Assembly: GCA_038228545.1 (NCBI GenBank) | Contig: JBBRPE010000001.1 | Location: 46,924-110,923 of the forward strand | Length of the DNA: 64,000 bases | Direction of reading: 5' to 3' | DNA from: Minisyncoccia bacterium | Lineage (GTDB): Bacteria > Patescibacteriota > Minisyncoccia > Phycocordibacterales > Phycocordibacteraceae | Shown: positions 9,036 through 63,527 of the stretch, in pieces | Numbering within the stretch: the first letter of the stretch is position 1 | How the letters are laid out: every line of letters begins with the position of its first letter | The notes under the pieces: model-generated | Database searches by the model: none | Told to the model about the DNA's origin: nothing | What the model saw: the letters and a program-made list of their open reading frames with translations, nothing else | Position numbers and translations under genes: made by a program

Positions 9036-9620
9036 ATGGGAAAGCTCGAAGCACAGGCCAAGCACGAACGGCGTCTCGGAGAGTTCGAACGCGCCATACT
9101 CGGCGTTACTGCTGCAGCCGGAATAGTCGCTGTAGGCGTTATCGCACCAAAACTTCTTTCATTAGTTCGGTACATACCTCAAAGTAACTCAAAATTTCGC
9201 TATCGAACGAAATCAACACTCACCAAGCTTGCGACACGAGGACTAATTACTTTCAGTAGCGAAGACGGGAAACGATACGCACGTTTAACTGAAAAGGGTG
9301 AGAAGCACATGGAGTATGAGACGCAGAAGCTCGTACTTACGCAGAATGCACGCAAACGCTGGGATAAGCGATGGCGGATAGTTACATTTGATATCCCAGA
9401 AGCTCGCAGACGAACTCGCACCCAGCTCCGTTACACCATGCAGGAAGCAGGATTCTATCGACTTCAGAATAGTGTATGGGTACTTCCGTATGACTGCGAA
9501 GACTTGATTACCCTTCTTAAGGCGGACCTTAAGGTCGGCAAAGACGTTCTTTACATTATTGCGGAGCATATCGAACACGATGCCGAGCTCCGCTCTCACT
9601 TCAACCTCCCAGCTGCCTAG
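9036..9620 (+). CDS. membrane-anchored winged-helix regulator with C-terminal Cas2/VapD-like (PaaX_C-like) domain
   Basis: TM helix ILGVTAAAGIVAVGVIAP. wHTH LTKLATRGLITFSSEDGKRYARLTEKG. C-terminal WRIVTFDIPEARRRTRTQLRYTMQEAGFYRLQNSVWVLPY resembles the Cas2 core fold. No CRISPR array in the window. Confidence 0.5.
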   Translation: MGKLEAQAKHERRLGEFERAILGVTAAAGIVAVGVIAPKLLSLVRYIPQSNSKFRYRTKSTLTKLATRGLITFSSEDGKRYARLTEKGEKHMEYETQKLVLTQNARKRWDKRWRIVTFDIPEARRRTRTQLRYTMQEAGFYRLQNSVWVLPYDCEDLITLLKADLKVGKDVLYIIAEHIEHDAELRSHFNLPAA

Positions 9621-10515: not shown

Positions 10516-10587
10516 TTCCTACAGTTCTTAGTTCAGTACGAAAAGGCCCCGCTTCCGGCGGGGCCCATCGTTTTATATAGAAGCTAC

Positions 10588-11766: not shown

Positions 11767-11790
11767 AAAACCCCTCGCCAGAGGGGTTTT
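11767..11790. terminator. hairpin (aaaacccctc-gcca-gaggggtttt) between nrdA and nrdB; possible attenuator or bidirectional terminator
   Basis: Perfect 10-bp stem flanked by A-run and T-run. Confidence 0.45.
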
Positions 11791-11816
11791 GATTTCGTTT
11801 TCATGTCCTCACGACT

Positions 11817-11903
11817 TCAGATACTAGGCGCGAGGAGTTCGCGCGAGAAGACGTACTAGCAGTACGTTGACGAGCGAGAACGAACTCGCAACAACGTAGA
11901 TGG
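11817..11903 (+). repeat. 88-nt structured interspersed element, copy A
   Basis: tcagatactaggcgcgagg...agacgtactagcagtacg...ctcgcaacaacgtagatgg. See finding. Confidence 0.75.
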
Positions 11904-11917
11904 TGTCGTTTTACGAG

Positions 11918-14872
11918 CTAGCTTTCGCAGGATTCGCAGATGCCGGACTCCATCCCCGCTGCCACACGAGCCAACTTCGCCTTCCATTCGGTGTCTGAGA
12001 AGCCCACAGGAATGCCTGATTCGCTCACGGTGACCGTTTCAATGGTGCCAAACTGTGGATTCTCAATACGCTCCACCACGACCTCTGTGTGGCTTTCTGC
12101 GGTCATTGGAGCTGGCTGTACCATGGCCAAGGCAGGCTCGCCCACCATCACCGACGAAGCTACGGCACCGGCTACTGCAGCTGCCCCACGGGTATGGGTA
12201 GAGCCGTATTCCGCAGTGCTGGTGGTCGACTTCTCCACCTGGGAAGCACCGAGTGTGCGAAGGTAGTAGGTAGTCTTGAGACCCATTTCCCATGCGAGGA
12301 AGTAGGCCTCGGAGAGTTCGCGTCCGGATGTTCCGTTGTAGAAGATGTTAAGGGACTGGGACTGGTCAATCCATTTGCCACGACGTGCAGCTGCCTCGAT
12401 GAGCCATTTCGCATCAATTTCAAAGACTTCCTTGTACTTCTCGCGAAGGCCGAATGGAATCTCCGAAATACCCTGAATGGAACCGTCTGCATACTTGATG
12501 CGGTTCAGCATTGCAGACGACCACATGCCAAGCTTCTTCAAATCCTCAACGAGGTATTTATTAAGAACAACGTATTCACCTTCCTTGTTGGACTTTACGT
12601 AGATGTTTTTGTAGATAGGCTCAACACACGGAATACAACCGACGAGATTTGCGGTCGAGGCAGTCGGTGCGATAGCCATCGTGTTTGAGTTGCGCATACC
12701 ATGCGCCTTCACGTGCTCACGAACCGAAGACCAGTCGAGCTTACCACCACGTTTCAATTTCACTTCCTCACCGCGCTCACTCTGGAGCAAATCGATAGTG
12801 TCCTGCGGGAAAATGTCGCGATCCCACTTACTACCCTTGTAGGTTTCGTATGTACCGCGCTCCGCTGCTAGTTTGGACGAACCGAGGATGGCATTGTACG
12901 CAACGACTTCCATGGACTCGTCAGCAAAGGCAACTGCCTCAGGTGTATCGAAGTTAATGCCGAGAAGATAGAGTGCGTCATGGTAACCACGAACACCAAG
13001 ACCAACCGGGCGATGACGCATGTTTCCGCGACGAGCATCCTCCGTTGGGTAGAAGTTAAGGTCGATAACGTTATCGAGCATACGCATTGATGCCTGCGTC
13101 ACCTTTGCGACCAAGTCATGATCGAAGAACGCCGTGCCATCTGCCTTGTAGGAAACAAACTTCGCGAAGTTGAGTGAGCCAATGGTACATACCGCAGTCT
13201 CTTCTGAATTCGTATTGAGTGTGATTTCCGTGCAGAGGTTTGAGTTGTGCACGACACCGACATGGTCCTGTGGTGAGCGGACGTTGGATGGGTCCTTCCA
13301 GGTAATCCATGGGTGGCCCGTTTCAAAAAGCATGGCAAGCATTTTCTTCCAGAGGTCACCTGCTGGAATGCGCTTGAACTGCTCGATGACACCAGTGTCA
13401 ACCATCGCTTCGTATTCGACATAGCGCTTCTCAAATGCCGCCCCATAGAGGTCGTGAAGGTCCGGTACGTCATTTGGCGAAAACATGGTCCAGTCTCCTC
13501 CATCGCGTACACGCTTCATGAACATATCCGGAATCCAGTTTGCTGTATTGATGTCGTGCGTACGACGGCGCTCGTCTCCCGTGTTCTTGCGAAGCTCAAG
13601 GAAGTCCTCGATGTCGAGGTGCCACGTCTCGAGATACACACAGCCCGCACCACGGCGCTTACCTGAGCGGTTAATAGCGAGATTCACGTCGTTCGCAATC
13701 TTAAGGAATGGCACAATGCCTTGCGACGGTACGCCTGTACCCTTAATAAAGGAGCCCGTAGCGCGAACCGGAGTCCAGTCAGTGCCGGTACCACCCGACC
13801 ACTTCAGGTACTGTGCATTATCAGATACAGACTTGAAGATTCCTTCGAGAGAGTCCGGCACTGTGTTGAGGAAGCAGTTAGAAAGCTGTGCCTTCTTTGC
13901 TCCTGCTTGGAAGAGCGTGCGACCGCCCGGTGTGTAGTAGAAATTACTAAGCAAGCCATAGAACTCAAGTGCGACGCGCTCGCGGTCTTCTTTCTTTTCG
14001 TTAAGGGAAAGTCCCATAGCAATACGCATCCAGAGCATCTGCGGAGTCTCGAGCGGCTTCTTAGTCTTTGGGTCTTCCATACAGTAGCGGCTGGACATGA
14101 TTTCGAGGCCCATGTACTCGAAGAGCGAGTCGTTCTCAATTTTCATCTTGCGCGCCATGCCAGCAAGATCATACTCGCCCATGCGCACGTCCAGATTACC
14201 TTCTTCGATGGCCTTAGTGATGTTGCGGACGAATACACGCTCATGTTCGAGTGCGAGCTCGTCTTCCTTAAACGACGAGCCGAAGACTTCCCCATACATG
14301 CGATGTAAGTGAAGAGCAGCGGCGAGCTTCGAGTACGCGGGGTCGCGCTCAATCATGGAACGAACAACCGCGATGAGTGCGCGCTTCACTTCGTCGGTGG
14401 TCATTCCTTCGTAGAGCTCGTACTTGAGCTGGGACATGATGTGATCTACATCAACGTCTCCCTTTACGAATTTCACGAGATTTGCACGTACGCGTGATTC
14501 GTCAAAGGCTTCTTCCTTTCCACTTGCGGTTTTAATGGTGAGTTTCTTCTCCTCAACCTTCTGAATTACTTCCTGGAGTTTCTCTTCGCGCTTCTTGGAG
14601 TGCTCGTAGCGGTACACGATATAGTGGCGAGCAACCGTAAGGTGTCCTTCGCGCATAAGCGTGAATTCAACGAGGTCCTGCACGTTTTCCACCGAAGGAG
14701 TTTGGTCCTGAAAACGTTCCTGAAGTTCAGCAATAATTGCTGTGGTCATTTCTTCGAGCTTCGAGGACTCAACCGGCACATGCATTGCGTCGAAAGCTTT
14801 ACGCATTGCTTCAGTAATCTTTTCAATCTCAAACTCTACGATAGTGCCGTTGCGCTTTTTGACTTGCTTCAT
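11918..14872 (-). CDS. nrdA: ribonucleoside-diphosphate reductase class I alpha subunit with N-terminal ATP-cone and C-terminal extension
   Basis: ATP-cone at the N-terminus, the catalytic NrdA core, and a C-terminal Cys pair (CESCES). Confidence 0.95.
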   Translation of the reverse strand: MKQVKKRNGTIVEFEIEKITEAMRKAFDAMHVPVESSKLEEMTTAIIAELQERFQDQTPSVENVQDLVEFTLMREGHLTVARHYIVYRYEHSKKREEKLQEVIQKVEEKKLTIKTASGKEEAFDESRVRANLVKFVKGDVDVDHIMSQLKYELYEGMTTDEVKRALIAVVRSMIERDPAYSKLAAALHLHRMYGEVFGSSFKEDELALEHERVFVRNITKAIEEGNLDVRMGEYDLAGMARKMKIENDSLFEYMGLEIMSSRYCMEDPKTKKPLETPQMLWMRIAMGLSLNEKKEDRERVALEFYGLLSNFYYTPGGRTLFQAGAKKAQLSNCFLNTVPDSLEGIFKSVSDNAQYLKWSGGTGTDWTPVRATGSFIKGTGVPSQGIVPFLKIANDVNLAINRSGKRRGAGCVYLETWHLDIEDFLELRKNTGDERRRTHDINTANWIPDMFMKRVRDGGDWTMFSPNDVPDLHDLYGAAFEKRYVEYEAMVDTGVIEQFKRIPAGDLWKKMLAMLFETGHPWITWKDPSNVRSPQDHVGVVHNSNLCTEITLNTNSEETAVCTIGSLNFAKFVSYKADGTAFFDHDLVAKVTQASMRMLDNVIDLNFYPTEDARRGNMRHRPVGLGVRGYHDALYLLGINFDTPEAVAFADESMEVVAYNAILGSSKLAAERGTYETYKGSKWDRDIFPQDTIDLLQSERGEEVKLKRGGKLDWSSVREHVKAHGMRNSNTMAIAPTASTANLVGCIPCVEPIYKNIYVKSNKEGEYVVLNKYLVEDLKKLGMWSSAMLNRIKYADGSIQGISEIPFGLREKYKEVFEIDAKWLIEAAARRGKWIDQSQSLNIFYNGTSGRELSEAYFLAWEMGLKTTYYLRTLGASQVEKSTTSTAEYGSTHTRGAAAVAGAVASSVMVGEPALAMVQPAPMTAESHTEVVVERIENPQFGTIETVTVSESGIPVGFSDTEWKAKLARVAAGMESGICESCES

Positions 14873-20197: not shown

Positions 20198-20227
20198 ATT
20201 GAAATTAGTGACTGTGCTGAAAAAGTC

Positions 20228-20315
20228 TCAGATACGAGGCGTGGGAAAGCCGTCGAAGTAGACGTATGTGCTATACGGCGGATGAGACGGCTGGGACCCA
20301 TAACGAAGTAGATGG
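20228..20315 (+). repeat. 88-nt structured interspersed element, copy B
   Basis: tcagatacgaggcgtggg...agacgtatgtgctatacg...gggacccataacgaagtagatgg. Located between the ABC ATPase and permease genes. Confidence 0.75.
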
Positions 20316-20330
20316 ATTTTTTAAGCATAG

Positions 20331-21263
20331 TTACACGTCTTTCTGAATTAAGTTCACAAAAACTTCTTCAAGACGACTACCTGAATTGCGGATATTGGCT
20401 ATCTGCACGCCTGCAGCGGAAATCTTGCGGATAGAGTCGTTTACGGTCTCACCGGGCTTGAGGGTGAGCTCGAGTGTCATATCGTCCACCTTCTTAAGTG
20501 GAAGCTCGCGGAGCACGACAAGTGTTGCTTCAAGAATCGGTTCAGTGATATCAAGCACAAGAGTGACGTAGTTGAGCTTATTAATGAGCTCCTTCACTCC
20601 CCCTTCGGCGATTATTTCTCCCTTGTTGATGATGGCGACCTTGCGGCAGAGGATTTCTACTTCCTCGAGATAGTGCGTGGTAAGTACGATAGTCGTTCCG
20701 GAAGCATTCAGCTCGCGGAGGAAGTCCCACATCCCGCGTCGAAGCTCAACGTCCACACCTGCAGTCGGTTCATCGAGTAGAAGAATCTTCGGTTCGTGCA
20801 CGAGTGCACGCGCAATCATCAGACGGCGCTTCATGCCGCCGGAAATCTCCATGGCCTTACTTGCACGCTTGTCCCACAGTCCGAGCTGGGTGAGCACTTT
20901 CTCGGTACGCACTTTTGCTTCTGCGCGAGGAATACCGTAGTAGCCAGCTTGATCAATCACAATGTCTTCAACTTTCTCGAATATATTGAAATTGAATTCC
21001 TGCGGTACCAGCCCGATGAATGACTTCGCGTGGTCCGGATCCTTGTTCAACGAAATGCCCGCCACATCTACCGTGCCCGACGAGATGGTAGTGAGTCCCG
21101 AAACTATCGAAATAAGAGTTGATTTACCGGCACCATTAGGGCCGAGGAAGCCAAAAAATTCACCATCCTCTATAGTGAGCGACACGCCCTTAAGCGCCTC
21201 AGTTCCTGAGTCGTAGACCTTCTTGAGTCCTTCAATTTTGAGCGCTGGAGTTGAGTTTGGCAT
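20331..21263 (-). CDS. ABC transporter ATP-binding protein
   Basis: Walker A GPNGAGKST, signature SGGMKRRL, Walker B LLLDEPT. Confidence 0.9.
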   Translation of the reverse strand: MPNSTPALKIEGLKKVYDSGTEALKGVSLTIEDGEFFGFLGPNGAGKSTLISIVSGLTTISSGTVDVAGISLNKDPDHAKSFIGLVPQEFNFNIFEKVEDIVIDQAGYYGIPRAEAKVRTEKVLTQLGLWDKRASKAMEISGGMKRRLMIARALVHEPKILLLDEPTAGVDVELRRGMWDFLRELNASGTTIVLTTHYLEEVEILCRKVAIINKGEIIAEGGVKELINKLNYVTLVLDITEPILEATLVVLRELPLKKVDDMTLELTLKPGETVNDSIRKISAAGVQIANIRNSGSRLEEVFVNLIQKDV

Positions 21264-21753: not shown

Positions 21754-23412
21754 ATGAATGACCTGGAAACACGAATCAAGTCCGTTGTACGAGGTGACGT
21801 TACTACCGATACAGAAACCCTCACCAAGATGTCGCGTGATACGAGCATTTTCACGCTTACGCCGTCGGTGGTCGTCTATCCGAAAGATGCGGAAGATGTC
21901 TCACTCTTGGTAAAGGCAGTTGGTGAAGCAAGGGCAGTCGGTGAAGACGTATCAGTCACTGCTCGCTCCGCGGGGACCGACATGTCAGGCGGACCGCTTA
22001 CGAAGTCAGTACTAGCAGTCTTTACGAAATACATGAATCACATCATCGAAGTCGGTGATGGCTACGCCATCACCGAGCCAGGTGTGTTCTATCGTGACTT
22101 CGAGAAAGCAACGCTCGCTCGCGACAACCAAATACTTCCCTCCTACCCCGCTTCGCGCGAGCTCTGCGCCATGGGCGGGATTTTGAATAACAATTCCGGT
22201 GGTGAGCGCACACTCGAATACGGCAAGACGGAAAAGTATGTGGAGGAAGTTGAGGTCGTTCTCTCTGACGGAACTATAACGACATTCAAAGAGCTCGGTC
22301 CTGCCGAGCTCGAAGAAAAGAAGAGTCTTAACACACTTGAAGGCGACATTTACCGCAAGATGTCGGCACTTCTTATAGAAAACCGCGAGACGATAGAAGC
22401 GGCAAAGCCGAAAGTATCAAAGAATTCCGCAGGCTACGCGCTCTGGAATGTCATGGATATGGAGAATGGCACCTTTAATCTCGCTAAGCTCATCTGTGGC
22501 GCACAAGGCACACTCGCATTTTCAACCAAGATGAAGCTCTCGCTCGTGAAGCAACAAGGCTACCGCTCCATGCTCGTGGTATTCCTCCAAGACCTCACGG
22601 TGCTTCCAGAAATAGTGAAGCGCGTACTTCCCTTTAATCCGGAAAGTTTTGAAAGCTACGACGACCAGACCTTTAAACTCGCTGTAAAGTTCATGCCGCA
22701 GATGCTTTCGCAGATGGGACTTGGTCGTGCCGCACGTCTCGGCATTTCCTTCATTCCAGAAATGGCGATGGTGCTCGAGGGTGGCGTGCCAAAGCTCGTG
22801 CTTATGGCGGAGTTTTCTGAAGACTCACATGCGGAGGCACTCGCCATGGCCACGAAGGCTCGCGCAGCACTCGCTGACCTGAAGCTTCCTACTTCGATAA
22901 AGAAAGACGAACGTGCCGCTGAGAAATACTGGATTGTACGCCGTGAATCCTTTGCGCTTCTTCGTAAGAACGTACACGGCCTGTACGCATCCCCATTCAT
23001 CGACGACTTTGTTGTACCACCAGCTACCTACCCCGAGTTTCTTCCTGAACTGAATGCCCTTCTCGACGAGTACAAGGATAAATTCATCTATACGATTGCG
23101 GGCCATATTGGTAACGGCAACTTCCACATCATTCCACTTATGGATCTCACCAAGCCTGATGTGCGCCAAGTCGTCCTCGACCTCGGACCGAAGGTCTACG
23201 CACTTGTTATTAAGTACGGTGGCTCAACCACCGGCGAGCACAATGACGGCATTATCCGCACACCATACCTCTCGCTTATGTTTGGAGAAAAAATGGTGGA
23301 ACTGTTTGCGCAGACGAAAAAGATATTTGATCCTCAGGGTATATTCAATCCGGGCAAGAAAGTCGGTGGAAGCTTTGACGCCATCAAAGCCGACATGATC
23401 ACCCACCTCTAA
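21754..23412 (+). CDS. FAD-linked oxidase (GlcD/D-lactate dehydrogenase family; FAD_binding_4 + FAD-oxidase_C)
   Basis: MGGILNNNSGGERTLEYGKTEKYVEEVEVVLSDGTI matches the PCMH FAD-binding signature. Confidence 0.8.
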   Translation: MNDLETRIKSVVRGDVTTDTETLTKMSRDTSIFTLTPSVVVYPKDAEDVSLLVKAVGEARAVGEDVSVTARSAGTDMSGGPLTKSVLAVFTKYMNHIIEVGDGYAITEPGVFYRDFEKATLARDNQILPSYPASRELCAMGGILNNNSGGERTLEYGKTEKYVEEVEVVLSDGTITTFKELGPAELEEKKSLNTLEGDIYRKMSALLIENRETIEAAKPKVSKNSAGYALWNVMDMENGTFNLAKLICGAQGTLAFSTKMKLSLVKQQGYRSMLVVFLQDLTVLPEIVKRVLPFNPESFESYDDQTFKLAVKFMPQMLSQMGLGRAARLGISFIPEMAMVLEGGVPKLVLMAEFSEDSHAEALAMATKARAALADLKLPTSIKKDERAAEKYWIVRRESFALLRKNVHGLYASPFIDDFVVPPATYPEFLPELNALLDEYKDKFIYTIAGHIGNGNFHIIPLMDLTKPDVRQVVLDLGPKVYALVIKYGGSTTGEHNDGIIRTPYLSLMFGEKMVELFAQTKKIFDPQGIFNPGKKVGGSFDAIKADMITHL

Positions 23413-23414
23413 TC

Positions 23415-24210
23415 TTACTAAGGCCAGGCCTTGGTATACTGCTCGCGTGTACCAAGGCCTGGCCTTAGTAATAACCCGTTGCTCGCATGGGAATGAGGAT
23501 AATCCAGTTCGGAGTAAATGAATGGTATCACTGCTACAGCCGTGGTGTGGATAAGCGCATGATTTTTCAAGAAGCCGCAGACTATCAGCGCTTCCAAATG
23601 CTTCTCTATGTCTGCAACAGTACTATTCCGATTCATCTAAGTGAGATAGCGAAACGTCCCCAAGGCCTGGCCTTGGGAGAGGTCATCAGCGAAATACGAG
23701 GTGAGCAGTTCGTGGATATTGGTGCCTATGCACTTATGCCGAATCACCATCATCTCTTGCTGCGTGAACGAGTCGAGGGAGGCACAACAGCTTTCATGCA
23801 GAAATTGGGTACAGCCTATACGATGTACTTCAACAAGAAGTATGAGCGCACCGGATCTCTCTTTTCCGGAAAGTTCAAGGCGAAGCATGTGGCCACAGAT
23901 GAATATTTCGCACGTATCGTGAATTATATTCATGGGAACCCCGCAGAACTACATGAGCCGGGATGGAAGAATGGATTGATACGAGACGAGAGGAGGCTTA
24001 AACAGTTTCTTTCTTCATATCGTTTCTCAAGTTTGCCTGACCATGATACTGAAGATGAAAGAGTGGAAGGTCATCTAATAAACAAGAACTCTGTTCTCGA
24101 ACTTATCGGATACACTCCAACATTTGAAACACTTATGGAAGATGCATATACGTTTCAACGCGACGTGGACTTCGATTGACCGTATACCAAGGCCTGGCCT
24201 TGGTATACGG
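23415..24210 (+). mobile_element. RAYT (REP-associated tyrosine transposase) gene flanked by REP-like palindromes
   Basis: A compound hairpin at 23415-23472 (two inverted copies of ttactaaggccaggccttggta), an internal ccaaggcctggccttgg at ~23660, and a perfect 31-nt palindrome ccgtataccaaggcctggccttggtatacgg at 24180-24210. Confidence 0.7.
23487..24179 (+). CDS. IS200/IS605-like HuH Y1 transposase of the RAYT subgroup
   Basis: HuH motif LMPNHHHLLL and the Tyr motif NYIHGNPAE. Confidence 0.8.
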   Translation: MGMRIIQFGVNEWYHCYSRGVDKRMIFQEAADYQRFQMLLYVCNSTIPIHLSEIAKRPQGLALGEVISEIRGEQFVDIGAYALMPNHHHLLLRERVEGGTTAFMQKLGTAYTMYFNKKYERTGSLFSGKFKAKHVATDEYFARIVNYIHGNPAELHEPGWKNGLIRDERRLKQFLSSYRFSSLPDHDTEDERVEGHLINKNSVLELIGYTPTFETLMEDAYTFQRDVDFD

Positions 24211-24241
24211 TCTTTGGTATACGTTGAATAGCTACGAGGAG

Positions 24242-28411: not shown

Positions 28412-29210
28412 TAGTGTACCCTACCAGACCAGACTGGTGTACCGTACAGATATGGAAAGTACCGACGTGCCAAAGGAAGACTGGGCGCATCTGATTCGTG
28501 ATAAATACGACGGTGACGAGTCTGTGGACGTAACCGAAGACCATGCGCGTCTCTCCGCAGGCGAGCCACTTGCGTATGTTATTGGTTGGATTCCCTTCCT
28601 TGGTCTGCGTGTGTACTTGGACAGCAAGCCGCTCATCCCACGTCCGGAAACCGAGTGGTGGGCAGAATTGCTCGTCGAGCATCTTCGGACTCGTTTCGGC
28701 AACACTCCGTTTTCGCTTCTGGATGTGTGTGCGGGCTCAGGCGCCGTTGGTCTTGCGGTGCTGGCAAACTGCCCGACAGCAACTGTCTATTTTGGAGAAC
28801 TAACACCGGCACATGCCGAACTTATTGCAAAAAATATCCGTGAGAATAATCTCGATGGGAGTCGCGCAATCATACGTAGCGGCGACCTGTTTGCTCCGTT
28901 CCTGCACGACATCTTTGACGTTATTACTGCAAACCCGCCCTATATACCGCACGGACGTGAGCTTCCCACGAGTGTTACCAAGTATGAACCTGCCGACGCT
29001 CTCTTTAGCGGACTTGATGGTCTCGATCTCATACGACGTATCGGAAACCATGCTCCGCACCATCTTCCTGATGGAGGCGAGCTGTGGATGGAATGCGACA
29101 GTGAGCATGCACCTGAGGCCGCACAAATACTCCGAGATGGAGGAAGTCTTAAGTCCGTTATCCGCACCGACCACTACGGTCGCGAACGCCTTGTGCTAGC
29201 CTATTACTGA
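28389..29210 (+). CDS. prmC: release factor glutamine N5-methyltransferase PrmC/HemK (start likely ~28454, MESTD)
   Basis: VCAGSGAVGLA SAM-binding motif and the NPPY motif ITANPPYIP. Confidence 0.8.
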   Translation: MRRVYIATSVPYQTRLVYRTDMESTDVPKEDWAHLIRDKYDGDESVDVTEDHARLSAGEPLAYVIGWIPFLGLRVYLDSKPLIPRPETEWWAELLVEHLRTRFGNTPFSLLDVCAGSGAVGLAVLANCPTATVYFGELTPAHAELIAKNIRENNLDGSRAIIRSGDLFAPFLHDIFDVITANPPYIPHGRELPTSVTKYEPADALFSGLDGLDLIRRIGNHAPHHLPDGGELWMECDSEHAPEAAQILRDGGSLKSVIRTDHYGRERLVLAYY

Positions 29211-29440
29211 TGCCCTCGTCCACTCCTATTGGCTTTCCCGTCGCATCGCTTCCTATTGCACAGGTAGTACCTGTTTTCTTTTTCCTCGTGTTCTTCATCT
29301 GGGCAATCTACAGCGTGGTCGCTGCATTCCACTGGCTACGCTATAGCAACAACACGACAGTCGCACTGTCGGCTATCACCGTCCATATCATTGTGTCGGT
29401 ATGGCTCGCGATTTATACAGTAAGCGGTCTCGTGCACTAA
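29210..29440 (+). CDS. small two-TM membrane protein (hypothetical)
   Basis: 76 aa, hydrophobic. Confidence 0.4.
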   Translation: MPSSTPIGFPVASLPIAQVVPVFFFLVFFIWAIYSVVAAFHWLRYSNNTTVALSAITVHIIVSVWLAIYTVSGLVH

Positions 29441-29466
29441 CTCCTAAGAATATGATTACAAAACTT

Positions 29467-29554
29467 TCATGTGCGAGGCGCGGGAGAGCGAGGACTGGAG
29501 GCGTACTGCAGCGTACGATGAAAGTCATCGCTCCGACCCGCAACGAAGCAGGGG
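29467..29554 (+). repeat. 88-nt structured interspersed element, copy F
   Basis: tcatgtgcgaggcgcggg...aggcgtactgcagcgtacg...cccgcaacgaagcagggg. Confidence 0.7.
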
Positions 29555-29576
29555 AAGTTTTTAAGCCTATTCTTGT

Positions 29577-32447: not shown

Positions 32448-32473
32448 TTGTTTGAGAATGCGAATTAAAGGAT

Positions 32474-32561
32474 TCAGATGCGAGGCGTGGGCGAGTGGGC
32501 GAAGTAGACGTACTCATAGTACGGCGGATGAGGCCGCTGGGACCCACAACGACGCAGGTGG
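32474..32561 (+). repeat. 88-nt structured interspersed element, copy C
   Basis: tcagatgcgaggcgtggg...agacgtactcatagtacg...gggacccacaacgacgcaggtgg. Confidence 0.75.
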
Positions 32562-32578
32562 AACTTTACTACGTATTC

Positions 32579-47768: not shown

Positions 47769-48764
47769 TTACGCCAGTAGTTGGGTAACGAGTGCGACCA
47801 TTTGGTCTTTCTTCTTCGGATTGCTTTCCGCAATAAGAAGTGTGAGCGCTGTAAGTGATGCCGGGTTTATGTTCCGGCCACCCTTCACTTTTGCCTTACG
47901 TAGAAACCAGACAAAGGCAAAAGCACCCGACCGTTTATTGCCGTCGGTAAATGGATGGTTCTTCACCATGAAATAGAGCAGATGCGCCGCTTTTTCCTCC
48001 GCAGTAGCGTATACGGGTTTCCCGCCAAATGACTGCATGACATTACCGACGATACCTTCGACGTTTCCTTCGCTACGTTCCTGGGCAAAAATATCGGTCG
48101 CTTCGCCCTTGTCGATAAGCTCGCTGCGCAAATGTACGATTGCATCTTTGAGCTCCGTACCCGAAAGCTTAATCGCTTTCTTGCTGGTACCGACTGCTTT
48201 CAGTGTTTCCTTGTCGTACGCATCGAGCGAAATCCACGTGCTAGAAAATTCCTTCACGAGCTCAAGGATACTCTTCGGATCAAGTGCAACATGTTCCGGT
48301 AAGAGTGCCTGGATATCGGCAACTGCCTTCATAAAGGCGTCGTAGTTCTTCCCTACCTGCTTGCGGTTTATCGTATAACCCTTGGTGATATGCTCCCGCA
48401 AGGTCTTAGTCGCCCAGACGCGGAAATTCGTACCAGTTACAGAACTAACTCGATACCCTACAGCAATGAGTACGTCCAGATTATAAAGTTTAACGTTTCT
48501 TGTGACCTGCCTTTTTCCCTCTTTCTGAACTTGTAAGAAATCCTTACAAGTTCCTTTTTGATTCAGCTCCTTATCCTTATAGATATTTCTCAAGTGTTGA
48601 GTGATGTTTTGTGGGGTTACGTCGAACATGGCCGCGATTTCCGCTTGAGTAGCCCACAGAGTTTCATGCGAAAAGTCACCCCGTAGTTCGAGGGCTCCGT
48701 TTTTCGCTTGATATATGACAACGCCCGCTTTCTTACCGTTCGACTTCATATTCCATTTTATCAC
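47769..48764 (-). CDS. Fic/Doc-family protein with N-terminal RhuM-like domain
   Basis: Doc-type motif HPFTDGNKRSGAFA near the C-terminus. The N-terminal ~200 aa resemble RhuM-family virulence/DNA-binding proteins. Confidence 0.7.
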   Translation of the reverse strand: MIKWNMKSNGKKAGVVIYQAKNGALELRGDFSHETLWATQAEIAAMFDVTPQNITQHLRNIYKDKELNQKGTCKDFLQVQKEGKRQVTRNVKLYNLDVLIAVGYRVSSVTGTNFRVWATKTLREHITKGYTINRKQVGKNYDAFMKAVADIQALLPEHVALDPKSILELVKEFSSTWISLDAYDKETLKAVGTSKKAIKLSGTELKDAIVHLRSELIDKGEATDIFAQERSEGNVEGIVGNVMQSFGGKPVYATAEEKAAHLLYFMVKNHPFTDGNKRSGAFAFVWFLRKAKVKGGRNINPASLTALTLLIAESNPKKKDQMVALVTQLLA

Positions 48765-50142: not shown

Positions 50143-50167
50143 AGTACGCAAGACACACAAGCGTTCA

Positions 50168-50205
50168 CGGCCGCCCCTTCCACAAGGGCGGCCGTTTTGT
50201 TTACT
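50168..50205 (+). terminator. intrinsic terminator
   Basis: cggccgccc-cttccacaa-gggcggccg followed by ttttgttt. Confidence 0.65.
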
Positions 50206-50232
50206 TTTCAGCACTAAGCCCGGAAAAGTGCC

Positions 50233-50323
50233 TTAGATACGAGGCGCGGGAAGAGCGGGGCCTGAGGCGTATATGTGATACGACGAACGGGCCCGCGAGG
50301 GACCCGTAACGACGTAGATGAGG
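50233..50323 (+). repeat. 88-nt structured interspersed element, copy D
   Basis: ttagatacgaggcgcggg...aggcgtatatgtgatacg...gggacccgtaacgacgtagatgagg. Confidence 0.7.
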
Positions 50324-50340
50324 TGCTTTTGCAGAAAAAA

Positions 50341-51672
50341 TTAGTAACTCTTGAGTCTTCGTGACTTCTCATGAGTTCTAATTTTTTCGAGGGCTTTCGC
50401 CTCGATTTGGCGAATACGTTCGCGGGTCACTCCAAACTCCTTCCCCACCTCCTCCAACGTATGGTACACACCATCCAAAAGCCCATGACGCATTTCAAGA
50501 ATCTTGCGCTCCTTCGGACTGAGGTCGTCGAGGATGTCGCGAACCTGTTCACCCAAGATGCGCTCGGATGATTCCTGAATTGGCGACGGAATCTTATCGT
50601 CTGCAATAAAGTCACCGAGTGTGGACTTCTCATCGTCATCCGAACCAATAGGGTTCTCGAGTGAGAGTGTGTCCTGATTGATTTTCTCAATCTGGTAAAT
50701 CTTATCTACCTCGACACCCATCTCTACGGCAATTTCTTCCGGCTGTGGATCGCGGCCGAGCGCTTGCGCGAGGCGACGAGATATCTGCTTGTACTTCGCA
50801 ATGGTTTCCACCATGTGCACCGGGATGCGTATGGTGCGGGACTGGTCTGCGAGTGCACGCGTAATAGCCTGGCGAATCCACCACGTAGCGTAGGTTGAGA
50901 ACTTGTAACCCTTCTTCCAATCGAACTTATCAACGGCCTTAAAGAGACCGAGGTTTCCTTCCTGAATGAGGTCGAGGAGCGTGAGGTCAGGACTACGGCC
51001 CACATACTTCTTGGCGATAGAGACCACGAGGCGGAGGTTACTACGTGCAAGAATGTTGCGAGCTTCATCGTCTCCAGCATCAATACGCTTCGCGAGCTCG
51101 CGTTCTTCAGACGCAGTTAGAAGCGGGTACTGGCCTATTTCGCGGAGGTAAATCTGGATGCTGTCGTAACCGGACGACTCACGACCCTTGATGTTGCGGG
51201 TAGCGAGATACTGGTCGGCATTGTCTTCGAGCATGCCGCCTTCGAGGATATCTATACCAGCGACTGAGAAACGCTCGTAGAGCTCGTCGAGGAATGCAAC
51301 GTCGTCTTCGACGGTTGGGAATTCCTTTAGAATTTCGCTGTAGGTAATGTAACCACGGGTCTTTCCCTTCTCGATAAGAAGCTCGGCCTTGTCTGCCTTT
51401 GCTCCGGCCGACTTTGCCTTCGCACCCTTTACGGCAGCACGCACCACGTCCTTAGCGCTTACTTTTTCTTTTGCTTTTGCTACTTTCTTTGGTGCGGCCT
51501 TCTTGGCGACCGGCTTCTTTGCCTTTGCTTTTTTAACTACTTTCTTTGGTGCCTTCACTTTCTTTACCGGCTTCTTTGCGGCCTTAGCAGGCTTCGCCTT
51601 TGCGGCCTTTTTTACCACCTTCTTAGAGGCAGGCTTTTTGACCGTCTTCTTGGGAGATTTCTTGGTGGCCAT
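50341..51672 (-). CDS. rpoD: RNA polymerase sigma factor RpoD with Lys/Ala-rich N-terminal extension
   Basis: Regions 1.2-4 ([21 protein letters not shown], region 4 HTH), preceded by ~75 aa of KKxAKK repeats. Confidence 0.9.
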
Positions 51673-57800: not shown

Positions 57801-59975
57801 TTACGCTTCCGTTTCTATCTCGATGTCGAGAGGCTCGATATCAAGCGCGAGACCACGGATCTGGTTAGTAAGCACCGAGAAGGACGCCGGTGTGCCTGCG
57901 TGAGACACTGGCTCGTTCTTAACGATGGCATCGAAGGTCGCGGAGCGGCCGGTGATGTCGTCTGACTTGATGGTGAGCATCTCGCGGAGCGTATATGCCG
58001 AACCGTAGCCGAGAAGCGCCCACACTTCCATTTCTCCGAAGCGCTGACCGCCGTTCTGCGCCTTACCTCCAAGCGGCTGCTGGGTGATGAGTGAGTACGG
58101 ACCGATAGAGCGCATGTGAATCTTGTCTTCCACCATGTGATGGAGTTTCAAGATGTACATGTAACCAACGGATACGGGCTGTGCAAACGCGGCACCAGTG
58201 TGACCGTCGTAGAGCTGCATCTTGCCCGAGCGAGCAAAGCCTGCGGCTTCGAGCTCGTCGCGGATTTCGTCTGCAGTCGCTCCTGCAAACGGAGGCACGA
58301 TAGCCTGGTAGCCGAGCGTATGCGCAGCAAGACCAAGGTGAAGCTCAAGAATCTGACCAAGGTTCATACGGGACGGGACACCGAGTGGTGTGAGAATCAC
58401 ATCTACCGGATTTCCGTTCTCGTCGTATGGCATGTCTTCAGCTGGAAGCACACGGGAGATAACACCCTTGTTTCCGTGACGGCCGGCGAGCTTGTCACCC
58501 ACCGATACGTTACGAACCTGCGCGACCGTAACAACAATCTTCTTGATGATGCCGGTCTCGAGTTGGTCGCCCTTCTCGCGTGAGAAGACACGAACACCGA
58601 TAACGCGACCGCGCTTGCCTCCTTCCATGCGAAGTGAGGTGTCCTTCACGTCCTTTGCCTTGTCTCCGAAGATGGAACGAAGAAGGCGCTCTTCCGGCGT
58701 CAGCTGGGTCTCACCCTTCGGCGTTACCTTACCGACGAGAATGTCTCCTGGACGAACTTCAGCACCGATGCGCACGACACCTTCCTCATCGAGGTTCTTA
58801 AGGCGGAGCTCACCGACGTTTGGAATGTCGTGGGTCGTCACTTCCGGTCCGAGCTTGGTGTCGCGAACGGCACACTCGAAGTCCTCGATGTGAACGGTAG
58901 TAAATTTGGATTCCTGAACGAGGCGCTCAGAAATGATGATTGCGTCCTCGTAGTTTGCACCGTTCCACGACATGAAGGCGACGCGTACGTTCTGTCCGAG
59001 TGCCATCTGGCCCTGGTCGGAAGACGAAGCGTCAGCGAGGATGTCGCCCTTCTTGACCTTGTCGCCAGTGTTAACTATCGGGCGCTGATTGAATGCTGAG
59101 TTCTGGTTTGTCTGAGTAAGTCCCTGAAGTTTATACTCGTGTGGCTTGTCCTTCGTCCCCTTAACGACAATCTTGCGAGCGTCAGCGTACGTGACTTCAC
59201 CTGATTCAAGAGCGATAACGAGGCGGCCAGTGTTGCGAGCGGCGTGCTCTTCAATGCCGGTTGCAACAAGTGGTGCCTCAGGAATGAGGACCGGTGTTGC
59301 CTGCTTCTGCATGTTTGAACCCATGAGTGCACGGTTGGACTCGTCGTGATCCATGAATGGAATCATTGCGGTTGCAGCGGAGAACATCTGGTAGGTCGAT
59401 GCGTCCATGAGTGTAATCTCCTCACGAGTAACGACCGCAGGCTCACCACCCTTACGGACTTCAATCTGGTCAGGAATGATGTGACCCTTCGCGTCTACGG
59501 GAGTAGCAGCATGCGCAATAGCGTGACCTTCTTCCTCGAGAGCGTTGTAATACTTCACCTCGTCGGTGACAACACCCTTCTTCACGGTTGCGTATGGCGT
59601 CTCGATAACGCCGAACTCGTTCGTGCGCGCATGAAGCGCGAGACGAAGGATAAGTCCGATGTTCTGACCTTCCGGTGTGTGAATTGGGCAGAGGCGACCG
59701 TAATGCGATGGATGTACGTCACGCACTTCGAAGCCGGCGCGTTCACGGGTGAGACCGCCTGGGCCAAGAGCTGAGAGGGTGCGCATGTTCTCAAGCTCAG
59801 CAAGAATGTTCTGCTGGTCCATGAACTGCGAGAGCTGGTTCGCGGTATAGAACTCGCGAACACTAGCCTGGAACGGACGAGGATTCACGAATGCCATTGG
59901 AAGAGCCGTCTCTGATTCAATAGTAGACATGCGGTCCTGGATATTGCGCTTCATGCGCGACATACCAACACGCAT
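57801..59975 (-). CDS. rpoB: DNA-directed RNA polymerase subunit beta, C-terminal ~2/3 (downstream of an in-frame TAG)
   Basis: Collinear with the RpoB rifampicin-cluster region through the C-terminus (SQFMDQ...RISALGPGGL...GHKG...). Confidence 0.9.
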   Translation of the reverse strand: MRVGMSRMKRNIQDRMSTIESETALPMAFVNPRPFQASVREFYTANQLSQFMDQQNILAELENMRTLSALGPGGLTRERAGFEVRDVHPSHYGRLCPIHTPEGQNIGLILRLALHARTNEFGVIETPYATVKKGVVTDEVKYYNALEEEGHAIAHAATPVDAKGHIIPDQIEVRKGGEPAVVTREEITLMDASTYQMFSAATAMIPFMDHDESNRALMGSNMQKQATPVLIPEAPLVATGIEEHAARNTGRLVIALESGEVTYADARKIVVKGTKDKPHEYKLQGLTQTNQNSAFNQRPIVNTGDKVKKGDILADASSSDQGQMALGQNVRVAFMSWNGANYEDAIIISERLVQESKFTTVHIEDFECAVRDTKLGPEVTTHDIPNVGELRLKNLDEEGVVRIGAEVRPGDILVGKVTPKGETQLTPEERLLRSIFGDKAKDVKDTSLRMEGGKRGRVIGVRVFSREKGDQLETGIIKKIVVTVAQVRNVSVGDKLAGRHGNKGVISRVLPAEDMPYDENGNPVDVILTPLGVPSRMNLGQILELHLGLAAHTLGYQAIVPPFAGATADEIRDELEAAGFARSGKMQLYDGHTGAAFAQPVSVGYMYILKLHHMVEDKIHMRSIGPYSLITQQPLGGKAQNGGQRFGEMEVWALLGYGSAYTLREMLTIKSDDITGRSATFDAIVKNEPVSHAGTPASFSVLTNQIRGLALDIEPLDIEIETEA

Positions 59976-60041
59976 ACGAGCCTGGAGAAGCTCACCAACG
60001 AAACGAACACGACGGAAGCCGAGGTGGTCGAAGTCGACCGG

Positions 60042-63381: not shown

Positions 63382-63418
63382 ACGTAAGATTCTAACGTAT
63401 CGAGTGCGAAAGAGATGC

Positions 63419-63507
63419 CTGAGATGCGAGGCGCGACGAGAGAATTTCTGCAGACGTACTAGCAGTACGGCGGAAGAAATGCTCGATGCCGCAACGAAGC
63501 AGATTGG
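63419..63507 (+). repeat. 88-nt structured interspersed element, copy E
   Basis: tgagatgcgaggcgcgacg...agacgtactagcagtacg...gccgcaacgaagcagattgg. Confidence 0.7.
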
Positions 63508-63527
63508 GCGTATTCTTTCGTGCTCGC

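Follow-up and report, generated by a model that had tools for sequence, protein, structure and literature searches.

We describe an interspersed hairpin element that is present in six copies in the window analysed here, i.e. the whole 64,000-nt stretch of a Minisyncoccia genome, and that belongs to a family spread patchily across phyla, from groundwater Patescibacteria to high-GC soil bacteria. The element is inserted, mobile DNA and has spread recently in some lineages. It was previously uncatalogued and is absent from Rfam. Our best explanation, to which we give roughly even odds (a probability of about 0.5), is a non-autonomous hairpin DNA element of about 125-140 nt, member of a widespread family, that moves with the help of a trans-acting factor, probably in the form of single-stranded DNA.

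With a covariance model derived from the six copies, we recovered exactly these six in the window, all on the + strand and with scores of 82-99 bits (Table 1); the next-best match in the window, obtained with filters off, reached 16.8 bits. The six-copy alignment contains 34 invariant columns, and a degenerate pattern of the conserved blocks matched five times in the window compared to 0.00 expected matches in shuffles. Fold z-scores of the individual copies, calculated against dinucleotide shuffles, ranged from -3.2 to -4.8. A preliminary description of this DNA had listed six copies of an approximately 88-nt unit, and both alignment and covariance model confirm all six. The core of that unit is correct, but its extent is not, since the folded unit includes an A/T tract and an outer stem (P0) and measures about 125-140 nt, the longest units of soil lineages reaching about 160 nt. 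Likewise, the three nested covarying helices proposed there were recovered together with their compensatory changes, but the element comprises six helical segments. The flanking genes had been named correctly for all six copies.

Table 1. Positions of the six element copies and of the resident Y1 transposase gene in the window
Feature	Core, covariance-model match	Score (bits)	Extent	Strand	Structure or family	Site
Copy A	11812-11908	88.5	11811-11913	+	core hairpin (11811-11909) plus 3' T-run	between nrdA and nrdB, antisense to both; nrdA stop 11918-11920 (CTA on +)
Copy B	20223-20320	97.2	20208-20334	+	full hairpin, 127 nt; fold -54.8 kcal/mol	between ABC ATPase stop and ABC-2 permease start, antisense to both
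Copy F	29462-29560	81.6	29441-29575	+	inserted segment 135 nt; hairpin 29445-29575	exactly between membrane-gene TAA (29438-29440) and T-ATG of PH-domain gene (29577), sense
Copy C	32469-32566	98.8	32448-32578	+	inserted segment 131 nt; hairpin 32456-32578	between hisS TAA (ends 32447) and true exonuclease ATG (32579), sense
Copy D	50228-50326	87.9	50222-50332	+	hairpin 111 nt; possible weak outer helix 50201-50347	between ORFan and convergent rpoD stop (TTA on +, 50341-50343)
Copy E	63415-63511	94.6	63391-63532	+	full hairpin 142 nt; fold -60.9 kcal/mol	KhpA-type KH gene and trmD (starts to left), antisense to both
Y1_Tnp gene			23487-24179		PF01797, E = 4e-9	

In the fold, copy A is without the outer stem P0 and without the 5' A-run. 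The base of copy B is formed by P0 (GTGACTGTGCT/AGCATAGTTAC), followed by a G.A mismatch and an A5/T6 tract. Copy E has inverted termini (CTAA...TTAG). The hairpin bases of these two copies contain the stop codons of neighbouring genes, namely that of the ABC ATPase (TTA on the + strand, 20331-20333) in copy B and that of the KH-protein gene (TTA on the + strand, 63528-63530) in copy E. Copy F separates a gene for a small membrane protein of 76 aa (29210-29440) from the PH-domain gene that it precedes, the gene beyond copy C encodes an RNase_H-like exonuclease, and the ORFan beside copy D has an ordinary terminator of its own. A marine relative (L067) carries a copy at the same position as copy E, between the KH gene and (rimM)-trmD.

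Beyond the 88-nt limits, a 5' A-run pairs with a 3' T-run, and the outer stem P0 adds 8-12 covarying base pairs. From the base upward, P0 is followed by a conserved mismatch, the A-run/U-run helix and P1. Above P1 lie a tandem G.A loop and a 3-bp helix (U-R-C/G-Y-A), then an asymmetric purine loop with GA-G-GC opposite AA-C-RAM, then P2 and the variable P3. The apex is an invariant CGUA/UACG helix with AGR and NNGA on its sides. The conserved blocks of the two arms, GAURCGAGGCG and CAACRAMGYAGAU, are not complementary to each other. Around 35 nucleotides over the 100-nt core are invariant and are kept across phyla while the helices covary. An A-run was found on the 5' side, before P1, in 73 of 112 copies, and a T-run of at least three on the 3' side, after P1', in 70 of 112; the reversed arrangement occurred in 1-2 copies. 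The U-run is poor in about one third of the copies (subfamily GAGAA/UUAUC). Among 70 soil copies, conservation ends symmetrically at the hairpin base.

The covariation is strong and strand-specific. In an alignment of 29 distinct sequences, 94.4% of cells were paired compared to 72.9 +/- 1.1% in shuffles, double changes numbered 178 compared to 52 +/- 6, and slid registers paired at 29-43%. A set of 57 diverse extended sequences, aligned with plain MAFFT, gave 88.2% paired cells (69.1 +/- 0.7% in shuffles), 362 double changes (123 +/- 10 in shuffles) and 34-40% pairing in slid registers. The covariation noted in the six copies holds in larger alignments, well above shuffles in both. U.G pairs were frequent at several positions in both sets, and of 107 copies, 106 folded more stably on the motif strand than on its complement; the difference averaged -12.9 kcal/mol.

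The covariance-model search, which had been suggested in the preliminary description, was extended to public sequences with the model from the six window copies and recovered 167 copies in 143 loci. Hosts of these matches are Patescibacteria, delta- and gammaproteobacterial MAGs and soil, sediment and marine metagenomes, the soil sequences having about 70% GC. The pattern used to scan reference genomes had a first spacer of 18 nt, against 20 nt in the window copies, and window-type copies were unrecoverable with it; the pattern used for metagenomes was corrected for the 20-nt first spacer. Rfam 15 gave no match in the window at the gathering threshold and nothing overlapping the motif strand at E <= 10, and over 12 loci there was no consistent Rfam match. 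ARAGORN found no tRNA or tmRNA. These searches agree with the earlier remark that no known RNA family was recognised in the element, and literature searches, including searches for literal consensus strings, retrieved no published description. A phage or plasmid origin was also considered and rejected: a single true copy was located on an IMG/VR viral contig, PLSDB contained none, BLASTN found none in plasmid records, and the only BLASTN match among phage records was a chance similarity of 34 nt. With copy B as query, BLASTN revealed no similarity in E. coli genomes.

Mobility is evident from the comparison of filled and empty sites. Six syntenic Paceibacterota relatives, compared over 120 kb, contained no copy. 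In two of these six relatives, the stop/start junctions corresponding to sites C and F are empty and 1-3 nt long: site C reads TAG-TCT-ATG in L147 and TAG-GTG-ATG in L146, and site F reads TAA-T-ATG in L147. Deleting insert F from the window restores the 8-mer TAATATGG. No target duplication was found at C and F, the two sites resolved by filled/empty comparison. The idea that the outer stem or the A/T tracts were contributed by the target, e.g. by a pre-existing terminator, was rejected, since the empty sites TAG-TCT-ATG and TAA-T-ATG indicate that both arms arrived with the insert. Among all copies, 82 pairs are at least 90% identical and the flanks are unrelated in most of them; soil copies that are 92-96% identical lie within unrelated flanks. 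Because orthologous sites in relatives are empty and near-identical copies occur in unrelated flanks, we conclude that the element is inserted DNA, in agreement with the mobile nature first proposed for it. At the nrd locus, presence and absence are reciprocal between genomes. Orthologous copies persist with compensatory changes in genomes whose NrdB is only 72-77% identical to that of the window, and this suggests selection beyond pure selfishness.

No gene is carried by the element. Between inverted copy pairs, where a transposase was looked for, only ordinary metabolic genes were present. Clustering of flanking ORFs revealed no recurrent gene beside the element and no reverse transcriptase; the clusters consisted only of spurious ORFs running through the motif, ABC ATPases and luciferase-like monooxygenases.

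The landing places are the few nucleotides between genes, that is stop/start and stop/stop junctions and tRNA boundaries, with the hairpin directly adjoining, at its 3' base, a stop codon, a start codon or a tRNA end. With metagenome genes called by a crude longest-ORF heuristic, so that the figures are approximate, 92 classified copies comprised 35 convergent, 35 co-directional antisense, 16 co-directional sense and 6 divergent sites, and TAG was enriched among neighbouring stop codons (58% compared to 27%). Copies next to genes of the rpsP operon or to nrd genes are antisense to them, those next to tRNA genes sense. Orientation relative to replication appears inconsistent among the sampled loci, and the GC skew of the window is weak. 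The single orientation of the six window copies had been taken to rule out a simple leader or riboswitch. The orientation itself is correct for the window, but the argument is weak, given a two-sided chance probability of 0.03 for six out of six on one strand and mixed orientations within a few kb in other genomes. The conclusion that we deal with a dispersed structured repeat, and not with a leader or riboswitch, is nevertheless sound, as no gene recurs beside the element.

How might such an element move? We propose that its copying or movement depends on a trans-acting enzyme encoded outside the element. This enzyme would recognise the folded single strand via the conserved asymmetric loops and the mismatch near the base, and the single strand would most likely be DNA, as in the "peel and paste" transposition of HUH/Y1-type enzymes. 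HUH transposases recognise short subterminal hairpins. An enzyme class that processes single-stranded DNA is present in the genome in the form of the Y1_Tnp gene; no mobilising enzyme was found among the sampled loci. Mobilisation as single-stranded DNA, already suggested in the preliminary description, remains the best guess, and is consistent with the strand-specific fold and with insertion free of target duplication at the two resolved sites. Tolerance of the insertions may be aided by fold-back, which would keep flanking stop and start codons adjacent, by termini that often could provide a TAG stop in both directions, and by an A-run/hairpin/U-run layout that resembles a bidirectional terminator. 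Downstream of nrdB, three relatives have the element in the place taken by an ordinary terminator in the window genome.

Alternatively, the conserved core might be a functional RNA, such as a 3'-end or processing module, a protein recruiter or a small ribozyme, with DNA mobility being secondary. The RNA would then be the reason for, or the vehicle of, the spread of the hairpin, for instance by reverse transcription of read-through transcripts. We regard this as a tentative possibility. Around 35 invariant nucleotides are more than DNA recognition should need, and in this respect the core looks like a functional RNA. The strand-specific fold with its many G.U pairs, the invariant purine-rich internal loops with tandem G.A motifs, the apical helix that stays invariant in sequence while the other helices covary across phyla, and the compensatory change in orthologous copies all point in the same direction. 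The U-run that follows the inner hairpin resembles an RNA 3' end, and in CPR genomes several copies lie 15-21 nt upstream of co-oriented tRNAs, with which they would be co-transcribed. For about 45% of the copies, however, no neighbouring gene reads into the sense strand and no sense transcript is obvious (41 of the 92 fully classified copies, 35 of them antisense to both neighbours and 6 divergent; 48 of 106 copies with a known upstream gene; figures approximate as above). No promoter-like sequence was seen at or in the element, which also argues against this reading, as do the missing recurrent neighbour gene, reverse transcriptase and Rfam match and the close relatives that are entirely without the element. 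An outward promoter at the 3' end, serving adjacent tRNAs, was looked for and none was seen.

A more radical version, which we think rather unlikely, holds that the core of about 100 nt is a functional RNA driving its own spread, either as a small ribozyme or as a recruiter of a universal host enzyme. Its working parts would be the tandem G.A loop, the asymmetric GAGGC/AAC-R-A-M loop, a variable hinge and the CGUA/UACG apex, and the hinge could permit loop-loop docking, as in the hairpin ribozyme. In a closely related reading, a single-stranded DNA element may hijack a universal replication or repair protein and require no dedicated transposase.

Could the element be an unusually long REP/REPIN and the partner of the resident Y1 transposase (Table 1)? 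We consider this improbable. The best NCBIfam match of the Y1 gene is indeed the model for REP-associated tyrosine transposases, but with a score of 34.8 it falls far short of the cutoff, which is 80. Genes of this Y1 family are frequent in Patescibacteria, and RayT is the JGI name of some of them. Instead of the element, a different palindrome, CCAAGGCC-N-GGCCTTGG, flanks the gene; it is found at three positions, is conserved in homologues and occurs nowhere else. Co-occurrence was absent in either direction: four genomes with close Y1 homologues contained no element in 68 kb except one diverged copy, and 836 kb of element-bearing loci contained only one weak Y1 fragment. Moreover, the Y1 gene is syntenic and vertically inherited, whereas the element is patchy. 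The resident gene is therefore unsupported as a partner, and the element does not correspond to a REPtron, in which the cognate gene would be flanked by it.

Similarity to REP/BIME sequences is nevertheless apparent. The element is non-coding, multi-copy, hairpin-forming and possibly transcribed, and REPs probably also move as single-stranded DNA, leaving the target unduplicated. REPs are extragenic and lie mainly between unidirectional or convergent ORFs, downstream of coding regions (PMC3733652), and the element shares this setting (approximately 35 convergent, 51 unidirectional and 6 divergent copies). REPs are, however, palindromes of 20-40 bp with an unpaired GTAG or CGTC tag, and larger REP structures are symmetric inverted doublets (PMC3733652), while our element is a single asymmetric hairpin of 125-140 nt with non-complementary conserved loops, no consistent tag and about 35 invariant positions kept across phyla. 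Some CPR copies end in CTAC, i.e. GTAG on the other strand, or in TTAC, and soil copies end in CTAG. This terminal tetramer varies and often pairs within the stem, and neighbouring genes ending in TGG-TAG explain much of the CTAC. The preliminary label "REP/BIME-like" therefore does not hold as a statement of membership.

The second label, "MITE-like", fails on target-site duplication. In the case of a classical MITE, a DDE transposase of the IS5 or IS630 type, with CTAG or TA as target, would act on double-stranded DNA, and the hairpin would represent extended terminal inverted repeats, a role that the outer stem might fill. High-GC copies show an approximately 25-fold enrichment of CTAG at their outer edges, and in some of them CTAG stands at either end; additional arm-like units on the 5' side, each about 21 nt long, recall multiple transposase-binding sites, and near-identical copies have arisen in recent bursts. 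Yet MITEs require direct duplication of the target, and sites C and F have none. Identical flanking dinucleotides were found in only 11 of 105 copies. The left and right tetramers are inverted and not direct, behave as inverted termini and are often unequal (TTAG...CTAG, GTAG...CTAG, CTAA...TTAG), so that duplication of TA or CTAG, at first an appealing idea for the soil copies, was rejected as a general rule. In addition, strand-asymmetric G.U pairing is unexpected for a site bound as double-stranded DNA, the conserved arm blocks are non-complementary, and no transposase or IS with matching ends was found in about 0.9 Mb of sampled sequence. This explanation, too, appears improbable.

Other repeat families resemble the element in part. 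ERIC/IRU, Correia (NEMIS), BOX/RUP and bcr1 are intergenic repeats of 100-150 bp that form long imperfect hairpins. They occur in transcribed intergenic regions, inside operons and in either orientation, and can act on mRNA ends; in bcr1, compensatory changes suggest constraint at the RNA level. Most of these families have terminal inverted repeats and duplicate their target (TA in the case of Correia), and none is known to extend beyond one genus or family. Our element resembles them in size, long hairpin fold and intergenic or operonic sites, but its core is kept from Patescibacteria to soil bacteria of about 70% GC and no duplication was seen. With the PATEs, non-autonomous elements derived from IS200/IS605, it has in common a strand-specific structure, precise insertion free of target duplication and a trans-acting enzyme as we propose it. 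PATEs, however, carry two short subterminal hairpins and have a fixed target of 4-5 nt 5' of the left end, whereas the element is one continuous hairpin and its 5' flanks contain no conserved tetramer. Biased orientation relative to the replication fork is a further trait of IS200/IS605-type elements; our copies share one strand in the window and are of mixed orientation in other loci. Integron attC sites are imperfect palindromes of 57-141 nt in which the structure of one strand is conserved rather than the sequence, and which are recombined as folded single-stranded DNA with unpaired bases as recognition marks. In contrast to attC, the element termini are without RYYYAAC/GTTRRRY boxes, there are no cassette arrays and no integrase, and the copies occur singly, scattered between housekeeping genes.

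Bidirectional intrinsic terminators and conserved terminator repeats, such as the mycobacterial TRIT motif, are also known. The element shares with them the A-run/hairpin/U-run layout and the position at gene ends and between convergent genes, but its hairpin is ten times longer and contains internal loops that are conserved. Numerous copies are found within operons or separate co-transcribed tRNAs (two copies between two co-transcribed tRNA genes), and this, together with the poor U-runs, argues against terminator activity as a general property. That the copies are ancient, vertically inherited and immobile intrinsic terminators that are merely alike is, despite this layout, the 3'-end positions and the element taking, after nrdB in three relatives, the slot of the window genome's ordinary terminator, contradicted by syntenic empty junctions of 1-3 nt that never held a terminator and by near-identical copies in unrelated flanks, and with the operon-internal copies and about 35 invariant nucleotides common to different phyla we give it practically no weight.

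Small palindromic repeats such as REP, ERIC and Correia as a rule stay within one lineage, and a cognate transposase accounts for their conservation. What distinguishes the present element is that about 35 positions and the arrangement of six helices stay the same from Patescibacteria with genomes of about 1 Mb to soil bacteria of about 70% GC while the helices covary, that it is clearly mobile yet no protein travels along, and that it inserts with base-pair precision into gene junctions of 1-3 nt in streamlined genomes. The element is a source of gene-calling artefacts, since spurious ORFs run through it, and it can serve as a ready marker with which to trace horizontal transfer and type strains in uncultured lineages. 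It also provides a natural example of neutral insertion, in which fold-back juxtaposes the flanks and the insert brings its own stop codons and A/U tracts. If a dedicated mobilising enzyme exists, the family would represent a new and widespread pair of transposon and enzyme with folded single strands as the substrate. If the core functions at the RNA level, it would be a new, abundant class of structured RNA missing from Rfam. Should the RNA-driven spread prove true, the element would be a bacterial counterpart of SINEs and retrozymes, a kind of prokaryotic mobile element so far undescribed.

Searching the window with R1, a covariance model built from its six copies of the hairpin repeat (A to F), returned exactly six copies, all on the + strand and scoring 82-99 bits; the runner-up, with filters off, reached 16.8 bits. 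The number and orientation given in the preliminary description were thus recovered, with nothing else near these scores. A degenerate pattern of the conserved blocks matched five window copies (0.00 expected), and the alignment of the six contains 34 invariant columns. Each copy folds better than shuffled controls (z -3.2 to -4.8), and the reverse complements fold less well (z -2.2 to -3.8). RNAalifold recovered the helices proposed earlier together with their compensatory changes, and the flanking genes named for all copies agree with our gene identification. Neither gathering nor permissive thresholds gave a family match to the element in Rfam 15, and no tRNA or tmRNA was found at the window copies, in line with the earlier view that it belongs to no known RNA family. 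The unit boundaries had been set too short (~88 nt), because the sequence outside them also pairs. Folding with 25-nt flanks added 15.9 outer pairs on average, compared to 10.3 when 3' flanks were swapped between loci. The table also holds other features of the window. Among these, rpoB contains a single in-frame TAG (LNTDPTA-stop-PVDFDHLGFRRVRF, near 59976-60041). Relatives have Val at this position in one gene of ~1060 aa, and the window's long genes hold no second case; the TAG may reflect an error of sequencing or assembly, a nonsense allele of the MAG, or read-through.

Positions of the hairpin copies and of other features in the window
Feature	Position	Strand	Remark
Copy A, hairpin	11811-11909	+	without P0
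Copy B, full hairpin	20208-20334	+	
Copy F, full hairpin	29445-29575	+	
Copy C, full hairpin	32456-32578	+	
Copy D, full hairpin	50222-50332	+	
Copy E, full hairpin	63391-63532	+	
Ordinary GC-rich intrinsic terminator hairpin with U-run	11767-11792		upstream of copy A
Ordinary GC-rich intrinsic terminator hairpin with U-run	10520-10560	- (sense)	after nrdB
Ordinary GC-rich intrinsic terminator hairpin with U-run	50150-50185		after ORFan
Y1 gene	23487-24179	+	230 aa
Y1 region	23412-24230		palindrome at three sites
Y1 palindrome, in ORF	23660-23676		
Y1 palindrome, at stop codon	24187-24203		
PaaX_M/Cas2-like domain protein	9036-9620	+	no evident tie to the element
RhuM-Fic/DOC protein	47769-48764	-	no evident tie to the element
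rpoB	57801-60986	-	single in-frame TAG

The element is found far beyond this genome. One genome per species was scanned with a pattern whose 18-nt spacer missed copies of the window type (20 nt); of the 19 loci returned, 17 contained strong copies according to R1, 24 in all. The sources were Paceibacterota, Saccharibacteria, Uhrbacteria and Nomurabacteria MAGs, unclassified Patescibacteria and unclassified bacterial MAGs, as well as two 'delta proteobacterium' MAGs, one Desulforhopalus MAG and one gammaproteobacterial MAG; pattern matches in Paludibacteraceae and Myroides were due to chance. Scanning metagenomes with the corrected pattern yielded at least 120 stretches with at least 137 further R1 hits, and many of the matches listed derive from soil or sediment organisms of ~70% GC, some from marine ones of ~40% GC. 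The family totals at least 167 R1 hits in at least 143 loci. Viral contigs held one true match (L021, from IMG/VR), the single match in phage records was a chance one, and neither the plasmid collection nor the E. coli genomes contained any. Members of a third subfamily (L021 3194-3330, L066 1657-1744, L080 4040-4135) stand out by a far longer outer hairpin, ACCCGCATTTCTCACACA.../...TGTGTGAGAAATGCGGGT, and by a GACGAGGCGCG block that is present a second time, in tandem, on their 5' side. L151 (8700-8800, +) holds a diverged member that is shorter, ~100 nt, and built alike (GAATCGGC-AAAAA-TCC...GACGAG...CGTA/TACG...GCAGTAGGA-TTTTT-GCCGATTC); it scores only 23.5 bits, and the family is therefore broader than R1 detects. 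Tandem arrays in the same orientation occur in L062 (6630-6839), L002 (1735-2096), L117, L126, L132, L139 and L114. In L062 the second copy begins at P1 straight after the 3' tail of the first and lacks its own 5' arm, which suggests a local duplication via slippage between arms.

At its base the hairpin has the outer stem P0 (8-12 bp), topped by a conserved single mismatch (C.C, G.A or C.A). Next come a 5' A-run that pairs with a 3' U-run, then P1 and a 2x2 loop of tandem G.A. A short helix of 3 bp (U-R-C/G-Y-A) leads to an asymmetric loop in which GA-G-GC faces AA-C-RAM and one G-C pair is invariant; P2, a variable internal loop and P3 follow. The apical helix CGUA/UACG is invariant and is flanked by AGR and, across from it, NNGA. 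Among the matches listed, 70 soil-type copies show conservation from ~19 nt 5' to ~19 nt 3' of the core anchor, hence the repeated unit is the whole hairpin. All soil and marine subfamilies listed (L024-L143) carry an extra degenerate 5' arm of ~21 nt, some of them two. CTAG frequently borders these arms, peaking at -14, ~-40 and ~-57 from the model start (for example L065 ~235-300, L130, L134, L088). Their sequence is similar to the consensus 3' tail read as reverse complement, and that tail covaries with the inner arm and not with the extra one. The extra arms may be left over from older inverted copies, may be footprints, or may offer further binding sites.

Covariation was measured in two alignments, each controlled by shuffles and slid registers. 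Thirty hits fitted to the model (29 distinct) had 94.4% paired cells (shuffled 72.9 +/- 1.1%, slid registers 29-43%) and 178 double-change cells (shuffled 52 +/- 6). A plain MAFFT alignment of 57 copies less than 80% identical with 20-nt flanks, from the matches listed, gave 88.2% (shuffled 69.1 +/- 0.7%, slid registers 34-40%) and 362 (shuffled 123 +/- 10), and from it RNAalifold independently recovered P0, the A.U tract, P1 and the inner helices. Several pair positions switch among C-G, U-A and U.G, and on the opposite strand the U.G pairs would become C.A mismatches. Of 107 extended copies among the matches listed, 106 are more stable on the motif strand, with a mean difference of 12.9 kcal/mol, and ~65% of copies have the A-run 5' and the U-run 3', with the reverse polarity in one or two. 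We conclude that the structure of the element is under selection, on one strand.

Homologues of its RpoD place the window organism in the Patescibacteria (Parcubacteria/Paceibacterota). Six relatives keep the gene order of the window (rpoB-rpoC-dnaG-rpoD ... addA ... exonuclease-hisS-PH-domain-MTS), and their 120 kb contain no copy, even with R1 filters off. Between hisS and the exonuclease gene, relatives read TAG-TCT-ATG or TAG-GTG-ATG, and the window has TAA, a 131-nt insert and ATG. Between the small gene and the PH gene, TAA-T-ATG of the relatives corresponds to TAA, a 135-nt insert and T-ATG. Taking insert F out restores the same 8-mer, TAATATGG. Given these empty orthologous junctions, both P0 arms and both A/T runs came with the insert. 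Comparing filled and empty states revealed no target duplication at either site. Three CPR MAGs (L004, L006, L009) carry the element right behind the nrdB stop codon (TGG-TAG, then the element); in the window TGG-TAA is followed by 24 nt and an ordinary GC-rich terminator, and its own copy sits after nrdA. These three post-nrdB copies differ by compensatory changes, and the KH|trmD position is occupied in both the window and a marine locus (L067). Since some insertion positions are common to distant genomes, copies can persist for long, and those of the window, only ~67% alike among themselves, are old. In soil lineages at least 82 copy pairs are at least 90% identical over the unit (maximum 96% between unrelated loci listed) with unrelated flanks, which indicates recent spread. 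The element is thus a non-coding, strand-specifically structured insertion that spreads horizontally and within genomes, at gene junctions.

Gene contexts were counted with a crude ORF caller on 119 hits among the matches listed. The gene on the 3' side is convergent in 79 of 105 cases, with its stop codon at the hairpin base, and intergenic copies comprise 35 convergent, 35 co-directional antisense, 16 co-directional sense and 6 divergent cases. No recurrent gene was found beside copies in the loci listed, and inverted copy pairs enclose metabolic genes only. In high-GC loci listed, the neighbouring stop codon is TAG in 58% (background 27%), and CTAG is enriched ~25-fold at element edges (30 of 85 copies among the matches listed, ~1 expected). 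The tetramers at the two ends often differ from each other (TTAG...CTAG, GTAG...CTAG; CTAA...TTAG in copies D and E) and therefore represent the outermost inverted repeat. In effect, the element supplies a stop codon at both ends. Some CPR copies lie 15-21 nt, from the model end, upstream of a co-oriented tRNA-Leu, Arg, Lys or Ser gene, and others directly adjoin a convergent tRNA-Ser at its 3' end. The gap between two co-oriented tRNA genes in L014 is filled by a pair of copies placed 5'-to-5', and an ordinary terminator follows the second tRNA.

We favor, at about even odds (roughly 0.5), that the element moves as a single strand in folded form, most likely of DNA, by the action of an enzyme in trans. 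The enzyme would read the conserved asymmetric loops and the mismatch near the base, a detail that might equally well prove right or wrong. The main alternative, which we regard as unlikely, is that the conserved core is a functional RNA. Invariant purine-rich loops and covarying helices across phyla are a signature of structured RNA, and core conservation exceeds what a transposase should need; however, ~45% of copies lack a flanking gene reading into the sense strand (crude ORF caller), no promoter is visible, and close relatives do without the element altogether. The REP/BIME-like or MITE-like nature proposed initially holds insofar as the repeat is structured, dispersed and inserted, but neither a tagged 20-40-bp palindrome with cognate RAYT nor a target duplication accompanies it, and a DDE-type MITE is improbable.

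A REP served by the resident Y1 gene is similarly doubtful. Among ~50 proteins scanned against Pfam, covering most sizeable window ORFs, this is the sole mobile-element gene (PF01797 Y1_Tnp, E = 4e-9), of the Y1/HUH class, IS200-like and RAYT-like; among NCBIfam models it comes closest to that of the REP-associated tyrosine transposase (34.8 bits, cutoff 80). Its region carries a palindrome, CCAAGGCC-T-GGCCTTGG (CCAAGGCC-N-GGCCTTGG), doubled upstream, within the ORF and at the stop codon, which is absent from the rest of the window and from 149 loci. Y1 homologues are common in Patescibacteria. Four of them (L150-L153) have a like palindrome at the same three positions, and the one in L150 is syntenic with the window gene, beside an FAD-oxidase. 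The 68 kb around these four contain no element except the diverged 23.5-bit copy, and a Y1-family HMM run over 836 kb of element-bearing loci listed gave one weak edge fragment only. With a palindrome of its own and no co-occurrence either way, the Y1 gene is an unlikely partner. It resembles a single-copy HUH gene under vertical inheritance, with hairpins that are not dispersed; the HUH enzyme class is present in the genome, and nothing ties this gene to the element. That the copies are static, ancient terminators is excluded. The tRNA contexts, including the terminator in L014, show that tRNA-adjacent copies cannot be efficient terminators, and the ordinary hairpins in the window show that the host uses conventional terminators beside the element.

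The element may survive because fold-back would leave flanking stop and start codons adjacent, its ends would provide stop codons, and the A-run/hairpin/U-run layout could substitute for a terminator. In position and size it is closest to REP/REPIN and ERIC/Correia-type repeats, in apparent mechanism to ssDNA elements (IS200/IS605, attC). REP/RAYT systems are defined by tagged palindromes of 20-40 bp served by their cognate RAYT (PMC3733652, PMC6006769), and the element is neither that short nor tied to such an enzyme. The hallmarks of the other families are absent as well: it shows no target duplication, no separate left-end and right-end hairpins and no attC boxes. No published description was found, including by its literal consensus strings, and the element is real, widespread and apparently uncatalogued. 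It is a small palindromic mobile repeat whose structured core is unusually conserved. Spurious ORFs in high-GC loci run through it in several frames and cluster by BLASTP (at least 22 loci in one cluster), and the element likely seeds false 'conserved hypothetical protein' families in metagenome annotations.
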